In this document: positions 54,497 to 64,000 of the stretch, one piece after another
Position numbering within the stretch: position 1 is the stretch's first letter
Layout of the letters: each line of letters starts with the position of its first letter
Source: Spirochaetia bacterium
GTDB lineage: Bacteria > Spirochaetota > Spirochaetia > CADAEX01
DNA: 64,000 nt
Assembly: GCA_963662795.1 (NCBI GenBank)
Contig: OY759746.1
Coordinates: 1,792,001 to 1,856,000, forward strand
Reading direction: 5' to 3'
The notes under the pieces: generated by a model
Database searches by the model: none
The model's input: the letters and a program-made list of their open reading frames with translations, nothing else
Told to the model about the DNA's origin: nothing
Made by a program: the position numbers and the translations under genes

Positions 54497-54520
54497 GGTT
54501 AAGACTTTAATCCTTAACAG

Positions 54521-54570
54521 AAGGAGACAGGCAGAATTCCTTAATACAGGAAAGATCCTGTCTCCTTTTT
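54521..54570 (+). terminator. Intrinsic terminator
   Basis: AAGGAGACAGG...CCTGTCTCCTTTTT. Confidence 0.65.
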
Positions 54571-54781
54571 ATTATCATTACTTTTAGGGCAGTAACGCAT
54601 GCTGCCGGGAAATAAAAATAAAAAATAATGCTAAAAATAAAAACCGGTGTATAATTACCTATTAATCATAATCGGCAGAGTATGTTTCGGCTGCCTGCGG
54701 ATATAGTATTTTTACTTAACCACATTGCCTGTTTAAACCTGAAATGAAGCAGTAATGCAGAAAGGGATGTAATATCCTGTT

Positions 54782-55801
54782 GTGGCAGGAATTATATCAG
54801 ACGGAAAAGATATAAAAGTACGCATTCCCTATTCAAGAGAAGCTGTATTAAAACTTCATCAAATTGGCGGAGGCAGATGGAATCCGGAAGAAAAAGTATG
54901 GATTTTCAGCTACAGCAGGGAAAAAGATGCTTTAATCAGGAAGAATATCGGCCCGATATCCTTTTTACCGGATATTGAAACAGAGATTGTAAAACTGAAA
55001 AAAGAACTTGCCTTGAGGGGATACAGCCCTAAAACAGAAAAAGCCTATATAAGTCATGTTGAAAAGCTGCTTAAATTCTGCCGCTCAGAATGGCTCACAC
55101 CAAACCATAAAACCACAGATAAATTTCTATTGGAATTATGTTCAGGCCTAAAGTTGTCCGGCAGTTTCATGAATCAGTTTACATCATCGATAAAATTTTA
55201 TTTCAATAATTGTCTCGGCCGTCCTGATGAAGCAATGCTTCTTCACCGGTATAAAATCGGAAAAAAACTTCCCCCTGTTTTAAGCAAAACTGAGGTTGCG
55301 CTGCTTCTTGATTCTGTAATAAACCTTAAACATAAAACTATTCTGTCGGTAATCTATTCTTCAGGTCTTAGAATAAGTGAAGTGATAAATCTGAAACCGG
55401 GAGATATTGATTTTGATACAATGAATATTCATGTCAGGCAGGGAAAAGGAAGAAAAGACCGCATAACAGTTCTTTCAAGAAAGGCCGCCCAACTGATTTC
55501 ATTGTACAGAGAAGAATATCTTCCTTCTGTCTGGCTGTTCCCCGGACAGATCCAGAGCAGGCACATAAGTGTAAGAAGCGTTGAGGCTGTTTTTGGACGG
55601 GCATTGCTCAAATCCGGAATTGAAAAAGCTGCAACCGTACATACCCTAAGGCATTCTTTTGCAACCCATTTGCTGGAAGGCGGAACAGATATCCGCTATA
55701 TTCAGCAACTCCTCGGGCATAAAAACCTTAGCACAACCCAGATATATACTCATGTATCAAGCTGGAAACTGAAAAATATAGTCAGCCCGCTTGATTGCTG
55801 A
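54782..55801 (+). CDS. Integron-like tyrosine recombinase (SAM-like N-domain; lacks IntI I2 insertion)
   Basis: LRGYSPKTEKAY (SAM_4-like), SGLRISE, GKGRKDR, HTLRHSFATHLLE, LLGH, TTQIYTH; complete catalytic set; sits directly upstream of the cassette array. Confidence 0.9.
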   Translation: MAGIISDGKDIKVRIPYSREAVLKLHQIGGGRWNPEEKVWIFSYSREKDALIRKNIGPISFLPDIETEIVKLKKELALRGYSPKTEKAYISHVEKLLKFCRSEWLTPNHKTTDKFLLELCSGLKLSGSFMNQFTSSIKFYFNNCLGRPDEAMLLHRYKIGKKLPPVLSKTEVALLLDSVINLKHKTILSVIYSSGLRISEVINLKPGDIDFDTMNIHVRQGKGRKDRITVLSRKAAQLISLYREEYLPSVWLFPGQIQSRHISVRSVEAVFGRALLKSGIEKAATVHTLRHSFATHLLEGGTDIRYIQQLLGHKNLSTTQIYTHVSSWKLKNIVSPLDC

Positions 55802-55878
55802 AGCTGAATTCTACGCATAACTGCAGATAAAATTAAATAAATAATTATATCTGCAGTTGTTCATCTATAGTCTTTGAA

Positions 55879-55906
55879 TTGATGTATTACGTATGTATGA
55901 TACAAT
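55879..55906 (+). promoter_or_regulatory. Candidate cassette promoter (Pc-like)
   Basis: TTGATG-16 bp-TACAAT with an extended TG, about 45 bp upstream of the first GTT crossover. Confidence 0.4.
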
Positions 55907-55931
55907 CTAGGCTAAGCTAAAGCAAAGAATC

Positions 55932-55957
55932 ACAACTGCAACTACTAGGAGTTATAC
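55932..55957 (+). other. attI-like primary recombination site
   Basis: GCAACT-ACTAGG-AGTTATAC. GTTATAC (55951) is the exact complement of GTATAAC (56868) that closes cassette 1. No attC hairpin precedes it. Confidence 0.7.
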
Positions 55958-56110
55958 GAAAAACCGCGCCAAGAGGCTACAATTTCGCCCCGGGGAAACG
56001 GGAAAAGCCAGGCGTCCTGCCTGGCTTAAGAAAGAAATAACAGAAAATGGTAATAATTTTTAAAAGTGTGAATTTTGTAGTTTTGGAATAGCTTCAGTTC
56101 TTGAATAGAT

Positions 56111-56139
56111 TTGACTTACACAGCAATATGTGTTAAAAT
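56111..56139 (+). promoter_or_regulatory. vapBC sigma70-type promoter with palindromic operator
   Basis: TTGACT-17 bp-TAAAAT; ACACA...TGTGT inverted repeat in the spacer. Confidence 0.65.
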
Positions 56140-56166
56140 GTACACAAAAGGATTGAGGAGAAAAAT

Positions 56167-56367
56167 ATGGCTACAAACCTTGCAATTGATGATAAATTAT
56201 TAATACTTGCCCAGGGTATTGCTGGAATAAAGACAAAGAAGGATACAGTAAACCTTGCGCTTAAAGAGTTTATTCAGAGAAGAAAACAGGAAGAAATTAT
56301 AGATATTTTTGGCAAAATAGAGTTTGCAGAAGATTATGACTATAAACAAATGAGAAATAGAAAATGA
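56167..56367 (+). CDS. vapB: VapB-family antitoxin (cassette 1)
   Basis: MATNLAIDDKLL...TKKDTVNLALKEFI pattern; overlaps the toxin start. Confidence 0.88.
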   Translation: MATNLAIDDKLLILAQGIAGIKTKKDTVNLALKEFIQRRKQEEIIDIFGKIEFAEDYDYKQMRNRK

Positions 56368-56789
56368 AAATACTTGTAGATACTTCTGTCTGGTCATTGG
56401 CATTAAGGAAGAAAACACTCACAAAGGAAGAGGATAAAATTGTAAGAGAATTAAAGGAATTAATTTATGAACTTAGGGTCATGATAATGGGGCCTATAAG
56501 GCAGGAATTATTATCCGGCTTATCAGATGATGAAAAGTTTAAGATATTAAAGGAAAAATTAAAATCATTTGAAGATATAGAATTGAATCAGGAAGATTAT
56601 GAGAAAGCAGCTGAGATATCGAATAGTTGTAGAAAGAAAGGAATCCAAGGATCACATATAGATTTTTTAATATCAGCAGCAGCATTGAATAGAAATATAA
56701 GTATTTTTACAACAGATAAAGATTTTGAAAATTATAAAAAAATATTAAGTTTGAAATTGCATAAAGTAAGAGAAGAAATAAACAAGTAA
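56364..56789 (+). CDS. vapC: VapC PIN-domain toxin (cassette 1)
   Basis: LVDTSVW, QELLSG, DFLI, FTTDKDF acidic PIN residues. Confidence 0.9.
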   Translation: MKILVDTSVWSLALRKKTLTKEEDKIVRELKELIYELRVMIMGPIRQELLSGLSDDEKFKILKEKLKSFEDIELNQEDYEKAAEISNSCRKKGIQGSHIDFLISAAALNRNISIFTTDKDFENYKKILSLKLHKVREEINK

Positions 56790-56867
56790 AAGGAAAAGAC
56801 CCGCTTTCGTACGTCCTGTACGAAAGCGAAGAGGGGCGAAATTAAGAAAAAGAAGGCGCGGTTCATC

Positions 56868-57050
56868 GTATAACAGCGGATGTTCGGTTTCGGCTGGCGG
56901 GGAGTAAATTATCAAGAAACCCAGCCTTCACCCAAATTGCCTGTCCTATAACCATTTTGATAATTTAAAATATTACGGAAGAGTTTAATCAATAGCTGTA
57001 TAATGCAATTGAATAATCAGGCAACTTCGATCATCCGCGGGACGTTATTT
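56868..57050 (+). other. attC-like site 1 (183 bp)
   Basis: GTATAAC-A-GCGGATG...CATCCGC-GGGAC-GTTATTT. Confidence 0.8.
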
Positions 57051-57305
57051 GCAATACCGCAGATTAGTGATTATGAATTATCTAATTTAGTTCGTGTTTG
57101 TTCAAACATTCCGTGCCCAAGAGGAGCCCGGCGTCCTGCCGGGCTTAAGAAGAATTATAAAATCTTAAACTTACAATAATAAATAGGGAAAATGCTTTTA
57201 GATATTTATTGTAAACTTTTCCAGCAATGTAATAATTATAAAATGAATAATAAAAAGATTGGATCTGGTGTTAAATATTAATAAGAATAAAGGGTAGGTA
57301 ATTTT

Positions 57306-57665
57306 ATGGATAAGTATTTTGAAAGTAAAATAAACAGTAGTATAACAGATCGAAAAAAACTTCATGAAAGATTTGTAAAAGGTTGTAAAACCTATAAAAG
57401 CTTTCTAGAGCTTGAGGAAAGAGCATTTTCTGATAGTGCTTTATCAAGAAAAGTAAAAGAATTAATGGCATTATCAATATCAATAGTAACCAAGTGTGAA
57501 CCTTGCATAGAATGGCATGTGCAACAAGCTTTACTTCAAGGAGCTACAGATGAAGAAATATATGAAACAATAGATGTTTCAATAGAAATGGGAGGAGGAC
57601 CAGCAGGAGCATATGCAAGGTATGCGCTTAATGCAATGGATTATCATAGAGCAAATAAAAGATAA
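57306..57665 (+). CDS. Carboxymuconolactone decarboxylase / AhpD-like protein (cassette 2)
   Basis: ALSRKVKELMALSISIVTKCEPCIEWH (CxxC), GAT.EEI.E, MGGGP. Confidence 0.9.
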   Translation: MDKYFESKINSSITDRKKLHERFVKGCKTYKSFLELEERAFSDSALSRKVKELMALSISIVTKCEPCIEWHVQQALLQGATDEEIYETIDVSIEMGGGPAGAYARYALNAMDYHRANKR

Positions 57666-57946
57666 AAAATGAAATATTGAGATAAACCATTAAAGAATTA
57701 AGCTCCACGATGAAGGAGAGACGATATATTTACAAAAAAAATAAAGCTGTAAGTAGAAAAGTAGTAAATATATGAATATAGGATGAAAATAAAAAGTAAA
57801 TTATTGACTTAAAATAGATAAGAGTGTTATTTGGTACTGCCATGTAAAAAGTATGGGGAGCGCCCCGTTTTCGCCGTCCTGGCTCAAACGGGAAGAAGGG
57901 CACGGGAGGAGGAAGGAAAAGAGGGAATAAATAATTGCGGTACTGC

Positions 57947-58138
57947 AAATAACAGCGATTATTTCGCTGCGCTCCCTGTGGTCGCTTGGGCTCCTGCCAG
58001 TTGAGCTGGCAGATCGCCATATTTTGTTTTCATAAAACCGGAACAACATGTGTTTTATGCTCTTCAAGTTTGTAAAAACTAAATAAAAATATTTTAGAGT
58101 TTAGCCACAAAACATCGAATAATCGCGAGACGTTATCC
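57947..58138 (+). other. attC-like site 2 (192 bp)
   Basis: AAATAAC-A-GCGATTATTTCG...CGAATAATCGC-GAGAC-GTTATCC. Confidence 0.82.
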
Positions 58139-58233
58139 ACAATGCCCCCACAAGATGCAATCGCCCGGACCTCCGGCCGACGGGCGAGGATATGTTGTAC
58201 TAGGTAAGATTTTATTCACTAAAAGGAGTAAAA

Positions 58234-59025
58234 ATGCTATTACCAAATATTGATGAATTAAGAAATCAAAATACGATTTGGCACTATACAAAAGTTGATT
58301 ATGCAATAAAATACATATTGTATGAACTGAAATTACGTCTTTCGCCCGTGGCAAAAAGTATTGATCCAATAGAAAATAGTGGACATGGTATTAATTATTC
58401 TAATTTCAACAAACAAGAAGAAATATCAGATTTTGCCCGTGAATTACGTAATAAATATATTAAACAGTCTCAAAATGTTAAGCAACTATCATTTTGCATG
58501 AATGAATATGCTGATAATAAAATGCATAAAATTGATAAATATGGTTTTATAAAACCTAGAATGTGGGATCAATATGGTGATCATTATAAAGGGGTTTGTT
58601 TTGGTTTTGATAAAAAAAAATTAAAAATCAATGAGGAAAAACAAGTTGCAGGAAAAGTTGTATATTACACATATGATGAATTTATTGGAATTGAGCATTT
58701 TTCAATAAATGCACAAATAACACCAGATATTAATATTTCAGAACCAGAATATATTCAGAATCTTAGTAAGAAATTTAATCAATTATTTTTTAAAAAGCAT
58801 ATTGATTATATTGGTGAAAATGAATACCGAATTATATCGTTTAGCGAAACTGATTTTGATTATATAGATATCGAAAAATCAATTAATTGTATTATAATTT
58901 CAGGTTTTGTAGAATCAAACTATGATTATAGGGTATTAAGAAAGTATGCAAAAAAATTAAACATACCACTTATTCAAATATTATGGATCGGAACAAGTAT
59001 TGATATACAAAGAATAGAAAAATAA
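58234..59025 (+). CDS. DUF2971-like protein (cassette 3)
   Basis: WHYT, DPIE, MWDQYGDHYKGVCFGFD, K...Y..ENEYRII. Confidence 0.75.
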   Translation: MLLPNIDELRNQNTIWHYTKVDYAIKYILYELKLRLSPVAKSIDPIENSGHGINYSNFNKQEEISDFARELRNKYIKQSQNVKQLSFCMNEYADNKMHKIDKYGFIKPRMWDQYGDHYKGVCFGFDKKKLKINEEKQVAGKVVYYTYDEFIGIEHFSINAQITPDINISEPEYIQNLSKKFNQLFFKKHIDYIGENEYRIISFSETDFDYIDIEKSINCIIISGFVESNYDYRVLRKYAKKLNIPLIQILWIGTSIDIQRIEK

Positions 59026-59135
59026 TATTAAAAACAAAGAAATCTAATTTATGCAAGGATAATAATTGCCTGACAGTAAATAAAGTCCAGCCTTGGCTCC
59101 GCCGTGCGGCTTGGACAAGAAGTGGGGGCACTGGT

Positions 59136-59306
59136 GGATAACAGAGGATAATTCGCTGCGCTCGGAGTACCTCGCTTGGCCTGCGGCATATTTTGCTAGC
59201 ATTAAAGCAGTTCATATTCTATTTTACCCTATTTAAATATATTTCCCAAGACTATTACGTTGAAAATGGTTTTAGCAAAACATCGCTTATCCGCGGGACG
59301 TTATCC
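59136..59306 (+). other. attC-like site 3 (171 bp)
   Basis: GGATAAC-A-GAGGATAA...TTATCCGC-GGGAC-GTTATCC. Confidence 0.8.
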
Positions 59307-59424
59307 ACAATGCCCCCACAAGATGCAATCGCCCGGACCTCCGGCCGACGGGCGAGGATATGCAGTAGGAGTAATATACAGTATAATAGTATATGTTAGA
59401 AGAACCATTCGGGCAGAGGAAGAA

Positions 59425-59982
59425 ATGAAAAGAGAACAATTTTTTATATTGATTTTGTCAATATTACTTATTTCCTGCACAAAGATGGAAAACGATGTAA
59501 TTCTATTAGTTCCATATAGTCAACAAGAAAAATTAATTAACTATTTTACTAAAGCCAGTATTAAAGTAAAAATTGATAATTCTTTGATGACAATTTCTTC
59601 TCCTACTGATAATGTATTATTAAACCTTCTTGATTTTCTATTTACCAATATATATTTGAATAAAAGTAATTTAAATAATTCAACTACCACAAGAACTCAA
59701 GATGGATCATATTATAAAAGAAAATATCTTGAAATACTTCCTAATTTAAAATACATAATAAGGGATGATTTGAGTAGTCCAAAGGCAGTATATGACCCAA
59801 CACATCCTGATGCAATTAAAGAAGGTAAAGACAAAGGATATGTATATTATCCAAATATAATTATAGATGATGAGGAAAATGATCTTATCAATAATGTATT
59901 TTTATATAATTCAATTCTTGAATACTTAAAAAGTAGAAACATACCAGTTATGTCTATAGAAATTGATCCAAATAATATATGA
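59425..59982 (+). CDS. Lipoprotein with FlgC-like (flagellar rod) domain (cassette 4)
   Basis: Start MKREQFF with lipobox LLISC; SNLNNSTTTRTQDGSYYKRK and VYDPTHPDAI..G...GYVYYPNI match FlgC motifs. The upstream extension in the ORF track reads through repeat DNA. Confidence 0.75.
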   Translation: MKREQFFILILSILLISCTKMENDVILLVPYSQQEKLINYFTKASIKVKIDNSLMTISSPTDNVLLNLLDFLFTNIYLNKSNLNNSTTTRTQDGSYYKRKYLEILPNLKYIIRDDLSSPKAVYDPTHPDAIKEGKDKGYVYYPNIIIDDEENDLINNVFLYNSILEYLKSRNIPVMSIEIDPNNI

Positions 59983-60041
59983 TGAGTATCATAAATATTT
60001 CTGAAATTGATAGAAATTAATGTTTTTTAAATACAAAAAGA

Positions 60042-60161
60042 CTTCTAACTACTTTTACCTGATGTTTTCTTTGTTACATTTTGTACTGTCGCTTCGCTTC
60101 TGACGCACAAAATGCGCCAAGCCCTTCGGGCACGAAAATACAGATTAAGCAAATGTAAAAT
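60042..60161 (+). other. Degenerate classical-type attC nested within cassette 4
   Basis: CTTCTAAC-tactt-TTACCTG...CAGATTAA-gcaaat-GTA. CTTCTAAC is the exact complement of GTTAGAAG at 59395, upstream of the gene. Confidence 0.6.
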
Positions 60162-60247
60162 TCCAATTACTTAAACAAGGAAATAAGGGAAGAAGTCCGG
60201 CCTTGGCTTCCAGCCGTGCGGCCCGGACAAGAAGTGGGGGCACTGGT

Positions 60248-60439
60248 GGATAACAGCGATTATTTCGCTGCGCTCCCTGTGGTCGCTTGGGCTCCTGCCA
60301 GTTGAGCTGGCAGATCGCCATATTTTGTTTTCATAAAACCGGAAGAACATGTGTTTTATGCTTTTCAGGTTTGAAAAAACCAAATAAAAGTATTTTAGAG
60401 TTTAGCCACAAAACATCGAATAATCGCGAGACGTTATCC
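60248..60439 (+). other. attC-like site 4 (192 bp), near-identical to site 2
   Basis: About 6 substitutions relative to 57950-58138 by manual comparison. Confidence 0.85.
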
Positions 60440-60531
60440 ACAATGCCCCCACAAGAAGACACCGCCCGGACCTCCGGCCGACGGGCGAAGAGAATTGAAT
60501 ACCAATTAAACTACTTAAAAAAGGTAAATAT

Positions 60532-61434
60532 ATGAATGGATTAAATGAAAAAAGTATTTTATTCAAACATTTAGAGGACAATTCTTTACATACGATAAAT
60601 GAATTATATCATTATACAACAATAGAAAATTTCTACAAAATTATTGAAACTAAAACATTTTATATTTTTAATTCTTATCAAATGAATGATTATAAAGAAA
60701 ACTATGTATTGATCGAAAAACTCAAGGAATATTTAAAAAATAGAAATGATATTCCAGAGGATTATCTGAATAAACTTGATGAAACCATAAAGATAAAGTT
60801 TAGATTGAATACACCATATGTGTTTTGTTTAACTGAATTAAATGATTCGTTATCACAATGGAGAGCTTATGGAAATGATGGAAAAGGAATTTGTTTTAAA
60901 ATAGACAGTAAAAAGTTACAAATGAAATATCGTCTGCCTTTTACAGGCGCAGAAAAAGATAATAATTTATCATTACACAATGTAATTTATAATAATGAAG
61001 AGATTAAAAATATCATTGAGAATATTATCAATCAAAGTATTGATTTTGCAAAAACTCGAGATGAAAATATTAGAAATATAGTCTTTGCTGAAACAGCATG
61101 TGCTTTAATGGTAAGATTTAACCCAGTAGTAAAATTAAATGAATTTAAAGAAGAGAAAGAATGGAGAATTATTTACAATCCGGTCTGTATAAAAACCGAC
61201 GGCATTCCATTTAATACTTTAGATAATAATAAAGATATTGGATTTTTAATAACAAATAATAATTTGAGATCTTATTTTAAAATATCATTTACAAGTGATG
61301 AATTTAAAGATATTATTTCTGCTATTTATATTGGTCCTAAAAGTAGAGTAGACGATTATGAAATGCGAATATTATTAGATATTAATGCATTAAAGAATAC
61401 AGAAATATATCGTTCAAATATTCCATATAGATAA
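60532..61434 (+). CDS. DUF2971-domain protein (cassette 5)
   Basis: LYHYT, MNDYKE, DSLSQWRAYGNDGKGIC, FKEEKEWRI, IYIGP, SNIPYR. Confidence 0.85.
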   Translation: MNGLNEKSILFKHLEDNSLHTINELYHYTTIENFYKIIETKTFYIFNSYQMNDYKENYVLIEKLKEYLKNRNDIPEDYLNKLDETIKIKFRLNTPYVFCLTELNDSLSQWRAYGNDGKGICFKIDSKKLQMKYRLPFTGAEKDNNLSLHNVIYNNEEIKNIIENIINQSIDFAKTRDENIRNIVFAETACALMVRFNPVVKLNEFKEEKEWRIIYNPVCIKTDGIPFNTLDNNKDIGFLITNNNLRSYFKISFTSDEFKDIISAIYIGPKSRVDDYEMRILLDINALKNTEIYRSNIPYR

Positions 61435-61526
61435 TTATTTGTATAGGTAGAATAATTAACTGACTGTTTATGAAGTCCGGCCTTGGCTTCCAGCCGTGCG
61501 GCCGGACAAGAAGTGGGGGCACTGGT

Positions 61527-61698
61527 GGATAACAGCGGTTCAAGCGCATCGCTCGGATTACCTCGCTTGGGCTTCGCCAAACATCGCAGGGTTTATGCTA
61601 CAACTTTTTGAAATAACGAGTTAGGAGTAATAAATAATACAGCTTTATGTTAAATAGTCTTGGTCTGCGATGCTTCGCTTAACCGCAGGACGTTATCC
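61527..61698 (+). other. attC-like site 5 (172 bp)
   Basis: GGATAAC-A-GCGGTT(C)AAGCG...CGCTTAACCGC-AGGAC-GTTATCC. Confidence 0.82.
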
Positions 61699-61836
61699 AC
61701 AATGCCCCCACAAGATGCGATCGCCCGGACCTCCGGCCGACGGGCGAAAATTAGTAAACGCAGTTTTATAATTGGAAATGGTAAGCACTTTTTCCCCAGT
61801 CATGGAAAGGAAAAGTACCCCACCTAGTGAAAAAAA

Positions 61837-62568
61837 TTAGCTCTCCTTTTTATTTGAAATTCTATATGAATCTCCCGCGAGGGAGAAAACATGTGCATGA
61901 TGCAGCAGTCTGTCCAGCAGCGCTGTTGTCATTACTTCGTCCCCAAGCATTTCCGCCCAGGAATCAAAACTTTTGTTAGATGTTATGATAATTGATGTGC
62001 GTTCATAAAGTTCACTCACCAGCGAAAAGAATAAATTGGCCTCTTTTCGGTCAATAGGTGTGTAGCCTATTTCATCGATGATCAAGACATCGGACTTCAT
62101 GATTCGATTGAGCCTGAATGTACTCGAGCGCTGAACATCCATTGTTTTCAGTAGCTTCACCAGTGATGTGATTCGCTCAAAGCAGACCTTATACCCTTTC
62201 TGAATTGCCTCATAACCAAGTGCAATAGAAAGATGAGTTTTCCCTATTCCCGGAGGTCCAAAGAAAAGAAGATTTTCCTGTTTATCTATCCAAGTGAAAT
62301 CGAGAAGATTTTTAAGCTGTAATTTGTTTATACCTTCCAGCCTATTTATATTAAAATCTTCAAGAAGTTTTATTACCGGAAAATGAGAGCCTGCAAGGTT
62401 GCGTCTCAGCCTGCGTTCCATCCGGTAGGAGATCTCTTTTTCCAGAAGAGTTTTAAGGAACTCAAGATGTGAAATTTCACTTTCAACATTCACTTCATTT
62501 AATGCTTTTGATATCCCCTGAAGTTTTAAGTTTTCCAGCACTCCGGTACAATAATCGAGCGTTTTCAT
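61837..62568 (-). CDS. istB: IS21 helper ATPase IstB
   Basis: GPPGIGKTHL, LIIDEIGY, IITSNK, LLDRLLHH, GDSYR. Confidence 0.95.
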   Translation of the reverse strand: MKTLDYCTGVLENLKLQGISKALNEVNVESEISHLEFLKTLLEKEISYRMERRLRRNLAGSHFPVIKLLEDFNINRLEGINKLQLKNLLDFTWIDKQENLLFFGPPGIGKTHLSIALGYEAIQKGYKVCFERITSLVKLLKTMDVQRSSTFRLNRIMKSDVLIIDEIGYTPIDRKEANLFFSLVSELYERTSIIITSNKSFDSWAEMLGDEVMTTALLDRLLHHAHVFSLAGDSYRISNKKES

Positions 62569-64000
62569 AAAGCTCCTCCGATTATGCTGACCAGCGAACT
62601 ATAATAACTAAGCTTCCTTTGAACAACTTTTGGATTTCTTAAATCTGCTTTAACAGCCTGAATTCCGGTTATTAGTTTAGGGAGAATATTATCATGTAAA
62701 TCTTCAGTAACACCTTTTACATATGCATACGCTTCTTCAAGATTCATGGCGCTGCATCCCCCTGTTTCTTCACACACGATAAGGGCCTTTGAAAGTAGCT
62801 CAACATCATAGCCGCCGGATAGAAATTTACTTAAACTTGAATGCTGTTCACGAAAATAACGGGTGTAACGCCGATAGTTTTTCTGAACAAATTCCTCCCA
62901 ACCGGGAGCTGTAACTTTTTCAAGTAACTCATCTCGAAGCTGTGTTTGTTTAACAGAATTATCTTTAAAATGATTCTTTTTCGATATTATCTGTCCAGGA
63001 AGTACTGAGCGTGCGTGATGAGCAATTTCTCTTCCAGCCAATTCATCATAAATGAATAATTCATTCTCTGATCTATAAATCCAGACGGTTTTACGCCGGT
63101 ATGAAATAGGCACTGAATATTTACAGGAATCTACACTTATGAAACTTTTTAGATCTACTTTACGATCTTCCCGCTCAAGAATGGAATCTCTTTTAAACAT
63201 TGAAGCCCGCAAGGGCTTGAGTTTCTCTTGTTCCTTTTTAAGCAGGTTTGCAGGAATTATTCCGGTTGCTTGAGATATTTTCCCGTTTGCTGTTCTCACT
63301 ATCCATGAAGAGAGCTTTGATTGAACATCTTCGAAATCATCAAAGGTTCTCGCTGAAAAAAAACTTGTCTTTACGAACTTAACGAGATTTTCTACCTTTC
63401 CCTTGGATTCCGGATCTGCTTTTCGACAGACATATAGCTCAAACTGCATTTCATCTTGAAATTGGCTAAATGATTTTGTGAGAATAATATCCCCGCTGTT
63501 TTCACTGACAATCAGGGTCCGGTCCTGATCAATTACTATCTGATGTGGTATGCCACCTATGTACTCAAAACAATCAAGAAGATGTAAAATTACATCCAAT
63601 GTTGTAAACGGACGTTGCTGTACTGCAACATATCGGTATCTGCTTGCAGAGAGCACTGATGCAAAGATATAGACGGTCTCTCCAGTGTTTATCTTTAGCT
63701 GGCCAAAATCAACCTGCAATTGTTTTCCAAACGGCAGTTCATCTACCGGAGTATAGGACCTATATAGCGGTGATGTAAGAATTCCACCTGTTCTTACCAG
63801 ATATGAAATATAATTTCTCAAAGTACGGGGTGTTCCCGGAAGATTCTCCTCCCCGTATTTTTCCTCCAGCAAATCATAGACTGAAGACGAATATACCTTG
63901 CTTTCATTCAGCCGGTAAATCTCAATGACTTCGTCTCTGAAGGGTTCGAAGACTTGTTCTTTTTTATGAGCGATTTTTTGATACTCAACATATTTTTCAG
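62565..64000 (-). CDS. istA: IS21 transposase IstA (5' end outside window)
   Basis: QLQVDFG, DQD, DPESKGKVEN, YSVP; the frame stays open from 63872 to the window edge; 4-bp overlap with istB. Confidence 0.93.
   Translation of the reverse strand, partial: EKYVEYQKIAHKKEQVFEPFRDEVIEIYRLNESKVYSSSVYDLLEEKYGEENLPGTPRTLRNYISYLVRTGGILTSPLYRSYTPVDELPFGKQLQVDFGQLKINTGETVYIFASVLSASRYRYVAVQQRPFTTLDVILHLLDCFEYIGGIPHQIVIDQDRTLIVSENSGDIILTKSFSQFQDEMQFELYVCRKADPESKGKVENLVKFVKTSFFSARTFDDFEDVQSKLSSWIVRTANGKISQATGIIPANLLKKEQEKLKPLRASMFKRDSILEREDRKVDLKSFISVDSCKYSVPISYRRKTVWIYRSENELFIYDELAGREIAHHARSVLPGQIISKKNHFKDNSVKQTQLRDELLEKVTAPGWEEFVQKNYRRYTRYFREQHSSLSKFLSGGYDVELLSKALIVCEETGGCSAMNLEEAYAYVKGVTEDLHDNILPKLITGIQAVKADLRNPKVVQRKLSYYSSLVSIIGGAL

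Follow-up and report, generated by a model that had tools for sequence, protein, structure and literature searches.

A ~190-cassette integron-like array in a Spirochaetia bacterium, with a probable composite attC-like site split between cassette leader and trailer

Integrons are defined by an integron integrase, IntI, together with short attC sites. In sedentary chromosomal integrons the attC sites are known to be homogeneous, and the arrays of Vibrio extend over ~126-150 kb; how the cassettes of integrons originate is, to our knowledge, unsolved. Here we describe the first ~8 kb of a cassette array that lies in a window of 64,000 nucleotides (positions 1,792,001 to 1,856,000 of contig OY759746.1, assembly GCA_963662795.1) from a Spirochaetia bacterium. 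The array comprises ~190 cassettes on one strand and ~332 kb, which is longer than the Vibrio arrays and amounts to 8.5% of the genome (3.93 Mb), and it starts directly downstream of a tyrosine recombinase gene on the same strand (54782-55801). Its cassettes are bounded by a leader and a trailer, which are probably the outer arms of a composite attC-like site of ~270-310 nt in a chromosomal integron-like cassette system.

Leaders, trailers and cores of the array

The original prediction was that unrelated genes of this window share a leader and a trailer, forming a reusable shell, and that new cassettes arise when foreign DNA is placed into it. The repeats are where they were said to be: the leader starts with GTTATCC at exactly 58132, 59300, 60433 and 61692, and the trailers start at 59083, 60193 and 61473 and end in GGATAAC at 59142, 60254 and 61533. 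The four leaders form one family (58108-58199, 59276-59367, 60409-60500 and 61668-61759) with identities of 80-100%. BLAST of the 56-nt leader against the 3.93-Mb genome, a search that the original prediction had proposed, gave 157 matches, all on the + strand and all within C1:1850132-2180043, with a best E value of 4e-26, so that the repeats go beyond chance.

All 157 copies abut attC-like cores inside the array. Elsewhere in the genome we found three truncated fragments, at C1:450400-451900, 2344400-2344900 (- strand) and 2489450-2489950 (- strand), which consist of trailer and core, in some cases also of the initial 20 nt of the leader, and were probably relocated by rearrangement. An ordinary dispersed repeat that flanks genes by chance, whether a repetitive extragenic palindrome (REP), a miniature inverted-repeat transposable element (MITE) or another element with terminal inverted repeats, would account for the 20-nt inverted repeats at the cassette ends, but not for repeats that keep to one array, one orientation and the vicinity of cores, and its probability is negligible. 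A further small and conserved hairpin, CAGGTA...TACCTG, precedes the trailers of the commonest leader/trailer type (59047-59098 and 61437-61488 in the window) and is also present at the outside fragments.

Between the trailer end GGATAAC and the next leader start GTTATCC lie cores of 145-185 nt. Their ends are complementary; the sequence varies among copies while the pairing is retained, and the 5' arm has an extra base, as in GTTCAAGC against GCTTAAC in core 5 (61534-61691), whose L box looks canonical. This is the anatomy of an integron attC site, R''-L''...L'-R', with AAC/GTT boxes and the extra base in L'', and the L arms, which vary among core types, remain complementary. When the + strand of C1:1.847-2.181 Mb was searched with profile models of the core ends, 191 and 188 sites were detected, which give 185 paired junctions. 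R'' reads TAAC in 175 and GAAC in 14 sites, R' reads GTTA in 172 and GTTC in 16, and the two alternatives covary across the 185 paired sites. The intervening cassettes mostly hold one open reading frame (ORF) in one orientation, as integron cassettes do: in 162 of 185 cassettes the + strand carries the longest ORF, and cassette length has a median of 1355 nt and a minimum of 483 nt.

The pairing extends beyond the cores into the leaders and trailers. The 20 nt with which a leader starts are complementary, in reverse orientation, to the final 21 nt of its own cassette's trailer and not to those of the upstream neighbour's trailer. For 185 cassettes, leaders were aligned with reverse-complemented trailers: the mean score was 13.0 when the trailer came from the same cassette, 5.6 when it was the adjacent upstream one and 3.6 when it was drawn at random; the own trailer scores higher than the adjacent one in 136 cassettes, equally in 38 and lower in 11, and most low-scoring cassettes are long intervals in which a junction was probably missed. 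We counted 40 leader types. Among the 58 unique leader/trailer pairs, positions 4-9 and 12-20 each use two to four bases yet are 90-100% Watson-Crick paired with their own trailer, and over positions 5-20 the pairing amounts to 89% with own trailers against 59% with random other trailers. Position 11 is never Watson-Crick paired: in 60 of 61 aligned pairs the top strand has A against C, the bottom strand accordingly T.G, and the extra trailer base adjoins this position.

Past the stem, leader and trailer each have an AAGA-type linker and a stable hairpin. Of 134 unique leader segments, 96% are predicted to fold at -5 kcal/mol or better, and of 143 trailer segments 94%, as compared with 38-41% of shuffled sequences, and minority hairpin types differ in their stems and keep an RTCCW motif in their loops. 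The limits of conservation are sharp, with a stop at about +60 and a start at about -62. In the window, the trailers that start at 60193 and 61473 hardly differ, with 32 nt at 100% identity followed by one indel; that at 59083 departs from them, and its hairpin shows a compensating change (GTCCAGCC...GGCTTGGAC instead of GTCCGGCC...GGCCCGGAC). When segment 60185-60495 was folded as single-stranded DNA, the bottom strand reached -68.6 kcal/mol (z score -7.75) and the top strand -61.1 kcal/mol (z score -5.4), with a single long helix running through leader, R box, L box and trailer.

Stable hairpins in leader and trailer, together with the perfect TATAAT that follows some leaders, might also be expected of expression modules, with a 5' stem-loop, promoter and ribosome-binding site (RBS) at one end and a terminator or insulator at the other, so that each cassette would be an autonomous transcription unit. 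We consider this very unlikely. A consensus scan of the + strand found no terminator-like site at any trailer and 37 promoter-like sites against 31.4 +/- 5.1 in shuffles, which is no enrichment. The hairpins are followed by AAGA and not by a T run, the cargos have an RBS of their own (for example, AAAGGAG before the ATG at 58234), and a scan of 54500-62000 against Rfam 15 returned no matches at E up to 1. Expression modules would also leave the covariation with the own trailer and the AAC/GTT boxes unexplained.

We then propose a model for the composite site. From 5' to 3', an integrated cassette consists of G|TTA, a 16-nt variable stem arm, AAGA and a hairpin L, which make up the leader; the cargo; a hairpin T, AAGAAG, the complementary stem arm and ..TAAC, which make up the trailer; and a 145-185-nt core of the layout L'' - variable structure - L' that ends in G. 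In the excised circle the core would be followed by the leader, and the parts would join into one continuous element, of which one strand, likely the bottom one, would fold into a long hairpin. Its R box would be extended outward by the conserved bulge and mismatch and then by a second 9-bp helix, with two small hairpins at the base. Strand exchange at G|TT inside this element would leave every cassette with a 5' remnant of ~56 nt and a 3' remnant of ~62 nt. Folded single-stranded DNA would be the substrate, and the extended stem and flanking hairpins may stabilise folding despite the very long central loop, or may bind the N-terminal domain of the recombinase.

The pairing observed between leaders and trailers is what integron logic predicts if the exchange takes place at G|TT of R' and the site on the excised circle has a stem that extends far past the 7-bp R box. 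In the array, the bases 3' of the cut are part of the next cassette, and in the circle they are part of the same one, so that leader and trailer would be one circularly permuted element. Since the crossover would cut the site internally, any cassette of the system must carry both. Thus the notion of a reusable shell survives in part: one leader/trailer type does enclose many different cargos, but leader and trailer would be the arms of one site rather than an independent shell.

The window contains five complete cassettes and the start of a sixth, all on the + strand. An attI-like platform region (55802-55950), with promoter-like hexamers at 55874-55906 that read into the array, is predicted between the recombinase gene and the first crossover box, GTTA at 55951-55954. 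Cassette 1 (55951-56874) has another leader type, GTTATACGAAAAACCGCGCC, which is the reverse complement of its own trailer end (ATAAC at 56874), and encodes a VapB-like ORF (~56168-56367) and a VapC/PIN toxin (56364-56789, with PIN and VapC matches). After core 1 (56875-57043, L''...L'), cassette 2 (57044-57953) has a third leader type, GTTATTTGCAATACCGCA, that pairs with its own trailer, TGCGGTACTGCAAATAAC, and holds an ORF of the CMD/AhpD family (57306-57665). Core 2 (57954-58131) is 95% identical to core 4.

Cassettes 3 to 5 are those of the leader type described above. In cassette 3, the leader (58132-58187; R' box, 16-nt stem extension, AAGA and hairpin L) and the trailer (59083-59142; hairpin T, AAGAAG, stem extension and R'' box) enclose the gene of a 263-aa DUF2971 protein (58234-59025, Pfam), and core 3 follows at 59143-59299. 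The leader (59300-59355) and trailer (60193-60254) of cassette 4 enclose a lipoprotein-like ORF without a Pfam family (59426-59982), which likely starts at the ATG at 59426, as the listed ORF (59260-59982) begins at a TTG upstream of the leader; the folded segment 60185-60495 contains core 4 (60255-60432). Cassette 5 has its leader at 60433-60488, the gene of a 300-aa DUF2971 protein at 60532-61434 (Pfam) and its trailer at 61473-61533. The sixth cassette, with its leader at 61692-61747, is interrupted by an IS21-family element (window 61760-64000) that sits just after the leader and carries, on the - strand (61837-63998), istB (61837-62568) and istA (62565 to beyond 63998), both recognised by Pfam.

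Crossover position, core exchange and the recombinase

Sequence comparisons place the crossover at G|TT of R', where the 5' end of a cassette would match its own attC. The fourth position of R' (A or C) agrees with the own trailer of the downstream cassette in 100% of pairs, and the bases before the G go with the core. Duplicated cassettes (20 groups, 42 pairs) have the same downstream core in 19 of 42 pairs and the same upstream core in 4 of 42, for a chance level of ~13% that we estimated from the sizes of the core clusters. Four cassettes are shared with the genome of a relative, G011, at 86-91% identity; the homology ends at +3 and +5 of the next R' in two of them, at +4 of R'' in another and 52 nt into the core in the last. 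A different study yielded a contig with exact identity to 55800-55954 that departs from the window just behind the GTTA of attI, which suggests a different first cassette in another population.

In two other genomes, arrays with these leaders also follow homologues of the recombinase (80% and 46% identity), so that the order of recombinase and then array is kept in three genomes. In the predicted attI region of ~150 nt, with its promoter-like hexamers and GTTA junction, locus L015 shares the conserved block at ~55850-55910 as well as the AGGAGTTATACG junction. The recombinase itself is of the integron-like/Xer kind, with Phage_integrase and Phage_int_SAM_4 domains in Pfam. Against NCBIfam it scored 200 bits for TIGR02249, in two stretches (cut-off 265), 214.5 for NF040815 (cut-off 220) and 175 and 173 for XerC and XerD (cut-offs 335 and 330); the cut-offs for integron integrase, XerA, XerC and XerD all lie above its scores. 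It aligns to residues 9-172 and 239-317 of VchIntIA (2A3V), with 24 residues in place of 66 of IntI; it lacks the IntI-specific insertion and stands outside the integron integrases. Nor does it look like a housekeeping XerC or XerD, for which better genes exist at ~3.077 Mb (XerD-like, 313.5) and ~3.082 Mb (XerC-like, 296.6).

An AlphaFold2 model of the recombinase (pLDDT, the predicted local distance difference test, 86.5) found its best PDB matches in XerA (Z 21.8), an archaeal protein and the closest structural match, and VchIntIA (Z 19.0), with residues 1-62 unmatched. These residues form an extra conserved N-terminal domain of ~62 aa, strand-strand-helix-strand-strand-helix, with invariant W33 and W40. 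Pfam gave only HARP (E 0.17) for the N-terminal 81 aa, a features search with residues 1-62 reached a best score of 0.82, under the lead threshold, and the Foldseek structural alignments, which cover residues 64-339, lend no structural support to an arm-binding N-terminal domain. Two further genes of the same recombinase family lie inside the array on the opposite strand, C1:2050779-2051573 (-) and 1881758-1882309 (-); both lack the N-terminal domain, and the former scores 217 bits for NF040815.

A canonical integron integrase gene is present in G011 and, as a remnant, in the focal genome. Genome G011 has an intact IntI (399.6 bits) flanked by classical attCs of 64-101 nt, 415 kb from the array with the giant sites, so that the two systems are separate in that genome. 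In the focal genome the canonical intI (C1:412371-413302) is broken by a frameshift and in-frame stops into pieces of 175.8 and 195.7 bits that retain the IntI-specific motif region; it is 1.4 Mb from the array, and no attC array was detected adjoining it. On the basis of the linkage of recombinase and array in three genomes, the separate canonical system of G011 and the broken intI of the focal genome, we infer that the adjacent recombinase, and not IntI, is the catalyst of the array.

Several observations weigh against this interpretation of site and enzyme. Core type is independent of the types of the upstream trailer and the downstream leader (the mutual information was reached in 301 and 753 of 1000 shuffles, respectively), and the downstream cores differ in 23 of the 42 duplicate pairs. 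It is therefore only partly true that a core moves along with its cassette, and cores are evidently replaced often, through gene conversion or another crossover at R''. No recombination event was seen directly, and assembled contigs cannot reveal circles or rare excisions. The G011 array was parsed poorly, with 11 junctions in 60 kb; the cassette ends match in two of its three intervals of single-cassette length (971-1344 nt) and mismatch in one, and a second mismatched cassette was seen. The N-terminal domain of the recombinase has no assigned fold or function in Pfam and fold comparisons. Finally, the core keeps a canonical L box with the extra base. In known integrons this base is read by the IntI insertion, which the adjacent recombinase lacks, so that the canonical IntI, now broken, could have been the enzyme.

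Under a rival explanation, the canonical integrase built the array in trans and the adjacent recombinase is incidental. The R''-L''...L'-R' anatomy of the cores, the intI remnant and the classical attCs found inside the array would all fit. It is nevertheless unlikely, since in G011 the intact IntI stands beside its own short attCs while an insertion-less recombinase heads the giant-site array, the order of recombinase and array is conserved, and neither the canonical intI of the focal genome nor that of G011 was found to have giant-site sequences next to it.

A replicate of these analyses in relatives is limited by the parsing: with the core models of the focal genome, the arrays of G011 and of another genome, G005, gave 11 and 1 junctions, too few for a replicate test. 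Candidate joints in contigs were rejected as evidence of excision, as the contigs of four runs broke at repeats and the joints were other cassettes with the same leader and trailer. In the G011 array (loci L011, L124 and L125), at least two cassettes join a leader and a trailer of different types, in reciprocal combination; recombination within the conserved hairpins could produce such mixes.

The recombinase family is very large, with 7383 matches at E 1e-20 or better, and the closest named loci are titled Spirochaetia bacterium. Homologues of ~40-45% identity are followed by AAC...GTT palindromes of 150-190 nt in L029, L041 (Fusibacter), L054 (Aquimarina), L049 (Tenacibaculum) and L083, one of the palindrome-bearing loci being a metagenome assembly. 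A generic attC scanner applied to 80 loci of recombinase relatives flagged long palindromes in six, in which pairing beyond the R box was not evident by eye; the scanner is insensitive and missed the known G011 array. In PMC9024848, integrons are reported to be rare in the phyla of these Clostridia and Bacteroidota loci. The presence of the same recombinase family beside attC-like palindromes in Clostridia and Bacteroidota raises the possibility that the system may be a widespread, overlooked sister of integrons.

Cargo, shell reuse and nested integron cassettes

Over the whole array, the 181 cargos form 127 clusters, of which 95 are singletons. The claim that the enclosed genes are unrelated is borne out by this diversity, with a qualification for the window: one of the three cargos has no Pfam family, and the other two, 58234-59025 and 60532-61434, are both DUF2971, with only 33% identity over 46 aa. 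The commonest shell type, that of the window, defined by its 20-nt stem, occurs in 39 cassettes with 34 unrelated cargo clusters, so that the cargos are not diverged duplicates of one ancestral cassette. The next three shell types are found in 17 cassettes each, with 13-16 cargo clusters, and the same shell types are present in G011. In recent duplicates the shell remains linked to its cargo in 46 of 48 cargo pairs, and the two exceptions show a compensating change of a 4-nt block in both arms.

A Pfam scan of one representative for each of the 127 clusters found very diverse proteins, many of them of toxin-antitoxin and anti-phage type, including PIN, MazF, HigB, YoeB, RES, Fic, TIR, SIR2, OLD-like ATPases and Eco57I-type methylases, and further AbiH, HEPN, AIPR, HerA, reverse transcriptase and several transposases. 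Several transposase families were located in cassettes. Six primary ORFs that are 99-100% identical and form one cluster are spread over six shell types; they presumably encode an insertion sequence (IS) transposase.

Some cassettes of the array contain cassettes of another kind. BLAST with the classical attCs of G011 hit seven places inside the focal array, six of them at the 3' end of a cargo and 78-154 nt before the trailer end, and these nested sites are 80-93% identical to the attCs beside the canonical IntI of G011. The same cassettes also have a conserved module of ~65 nt at an offset of ~56 from R', just after the leader; it has a perfect TATAAT, ends in ..AATAT|GTT and, in the manner of an attI, does not fold (z score about -0.5). 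There are 28 such modules, all in the array and all on the + strand. In 12 of the 22 modules with a clear junction, the 7-mer GTTxxxx at the junction exactly complements the R'' of a classical attC-like site, which ends 17-43 nt before the trailer. A stricter test that adds L-box pairing was passed by 8 of 23, where 500 permutations gave 1.6 on average and at most 6, and by 0 of 148 cassettes without a module. One example (L119:13470-16137) reads leader, module, GTTATGT, a 724-aa ORF, ACATAAC...GTTATAA, 18 nt and trailer, and its inner site folds as a classical attC with a bulged G.

Cargos with a matching module and attC are thus ordinary integron cassettes, inserted into giant cassettes by recombination of the attI x attC type. 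No docking module was detected next to the canonical intI of the focal genome or of G011, and the three window cassettes of the shared type (cassettes 3 to 5) have neither the module nor a nested attC. It is tempting to speculate about a two-tier integron, in which IntI-independent cassettes with giant split sites carry a promoter-like element and attI-like docking sites that an ordinary IntI loads with classical cassettes; we regard this as rather doubtful. If true, there would be cassettes of cassettes, with the shells as mobile landing pads, and a concrete route by which one system makes its new cassettes from those of another.

The nested cassettes bear on the most far-reaching claim of the original prediction, that cassettes are born when foreign DNA is inserted into a pre-existing, cargo-less unit of leader, trailer and core. 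Such shell loading concerns the origin of cassettes and is compatible with the composite site proposed above. It would explain why one 20-nt shell type bounds 34 unrelated cargo clusters with sharp and fixed limits, and the attI-like modules with R-box-matched sites, the similarity of the nested attCs to those of the G011 IntI and the example read base by base also speak in its favour. The nested cassettes support placement of DNA into a shell for that subclass and not for the origin of all cassettes; they may also be later insertions into already loaded cassettes, the window cassettes show no trace of the process, and recent duplicates keep their shell with their cargo.

An empty shell, which the original prediction had proposed to look for, did not turn up. 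There is none in the genome, where the shortest cassette has 483 nt, nor did searches match any of 151 genomes of the class or, with two patterns, any metagenome contig, which is a weak negative as the patterns were exact and narrow. Loading thus stands as a possible origin of cassettes in general, with our judgement leaning against it.

Comparison with known systems

The locus described here is an array of ~190 cassettes headed by a recombinase without the hallmark of IntI, with a recombination site 3 to 5 times the usual length that would be split by the crossover. The system co-resides with a normal integron in a relative, and its cassettes hold normal integron cassettes that were docked into them at a defined site. 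Hairpin recognition without the IntI insertion and loading between systems can be studied on tractable substrates, namely the composite site, the docking module and the two recombinases, and searches based on IntI may overlook whole classes of cassette arrays.

The recombinase belongs to a family that the National Center for Biotechnology Information (NCBI) names 'site-specific tyrosine recombinase/integron integrase'. According to the portions of Smyshlyaev et al. 2021 (PMC8138268) available to us, the IntI insertion is not conserved throughout the 'integron-like' subgroup of tyrosine recombinases, and those portions describe no cassette array or recombination site for the insertion-less members. 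In full-text searches of the literature, which covered main texts, nothing turned up on integron-like arrays whose recombinase lacks the insertion, on extended attC sites with conserved arms past the R boxes that are split, or on cassettes nested in one another.

Other described systems share single features with the array. The attP of lambda-like integrases has arm-type sites, that is, accessory elements on either side of the crossover that are split on integration, so that each junction retains one arm, and a recombinase with an extra N-terminal domain. This is an analogy only: the N-terminal domain here does not align to the arm-binding domain of lambda Int, and the arms are hairpins and a stem extension instead of repeated duplex motifs. 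The array would also qualify as a cluster of attC sites that has no integron integrase (CALIN) under the IntegronFinder definition of PMC9024848, if its cores were detected, as no IntI is nearby. CALINs average ~6 attC sites and are read there as decayed integrons, whereas this array has ~190 sites, an intact dedicated recombinase at its head and a synteny that is conserved in other genomes.

Treponema-type integrons share the spirochaete host and an integrase on the strand of the array. They differ in their attCs of 63-132 bp and their genuine IntI (PMC3607928) from the present system, with its cores of 145-185 nt plus arms and an enzyme that lacks the insertion.

The closest likeness is to sedentary chromosomal integrons such as the Vibrio superintegron with its Vibrio cholerae repeats (VCR). 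Both have a long array on one strand with mostly single-ORF cassettes, similar imperfect palindromes with AAC...GTT boxes, unrelated cargos with many toxin-antitoxin and defence genes, and a crossover that is placed at G|TT; the defence content of sedentary integrons is described in 10.1101/2024.07.02.601686. The recombinase here differs in lacking the IntI insertion and in its extra N-terminal domain, and conservation and pairing reach ~60 nt past each R box, which makes a composite site of ~300 nt. The uniformity of leaders and trailers is the attC homogeneity of sedentary integrons extended by ~60 nt on each side. Together, the system works like a sedentary chromosomal integron, yet its recombinase falls outside IntI, and it is set apart by the size and the split nature of its site.

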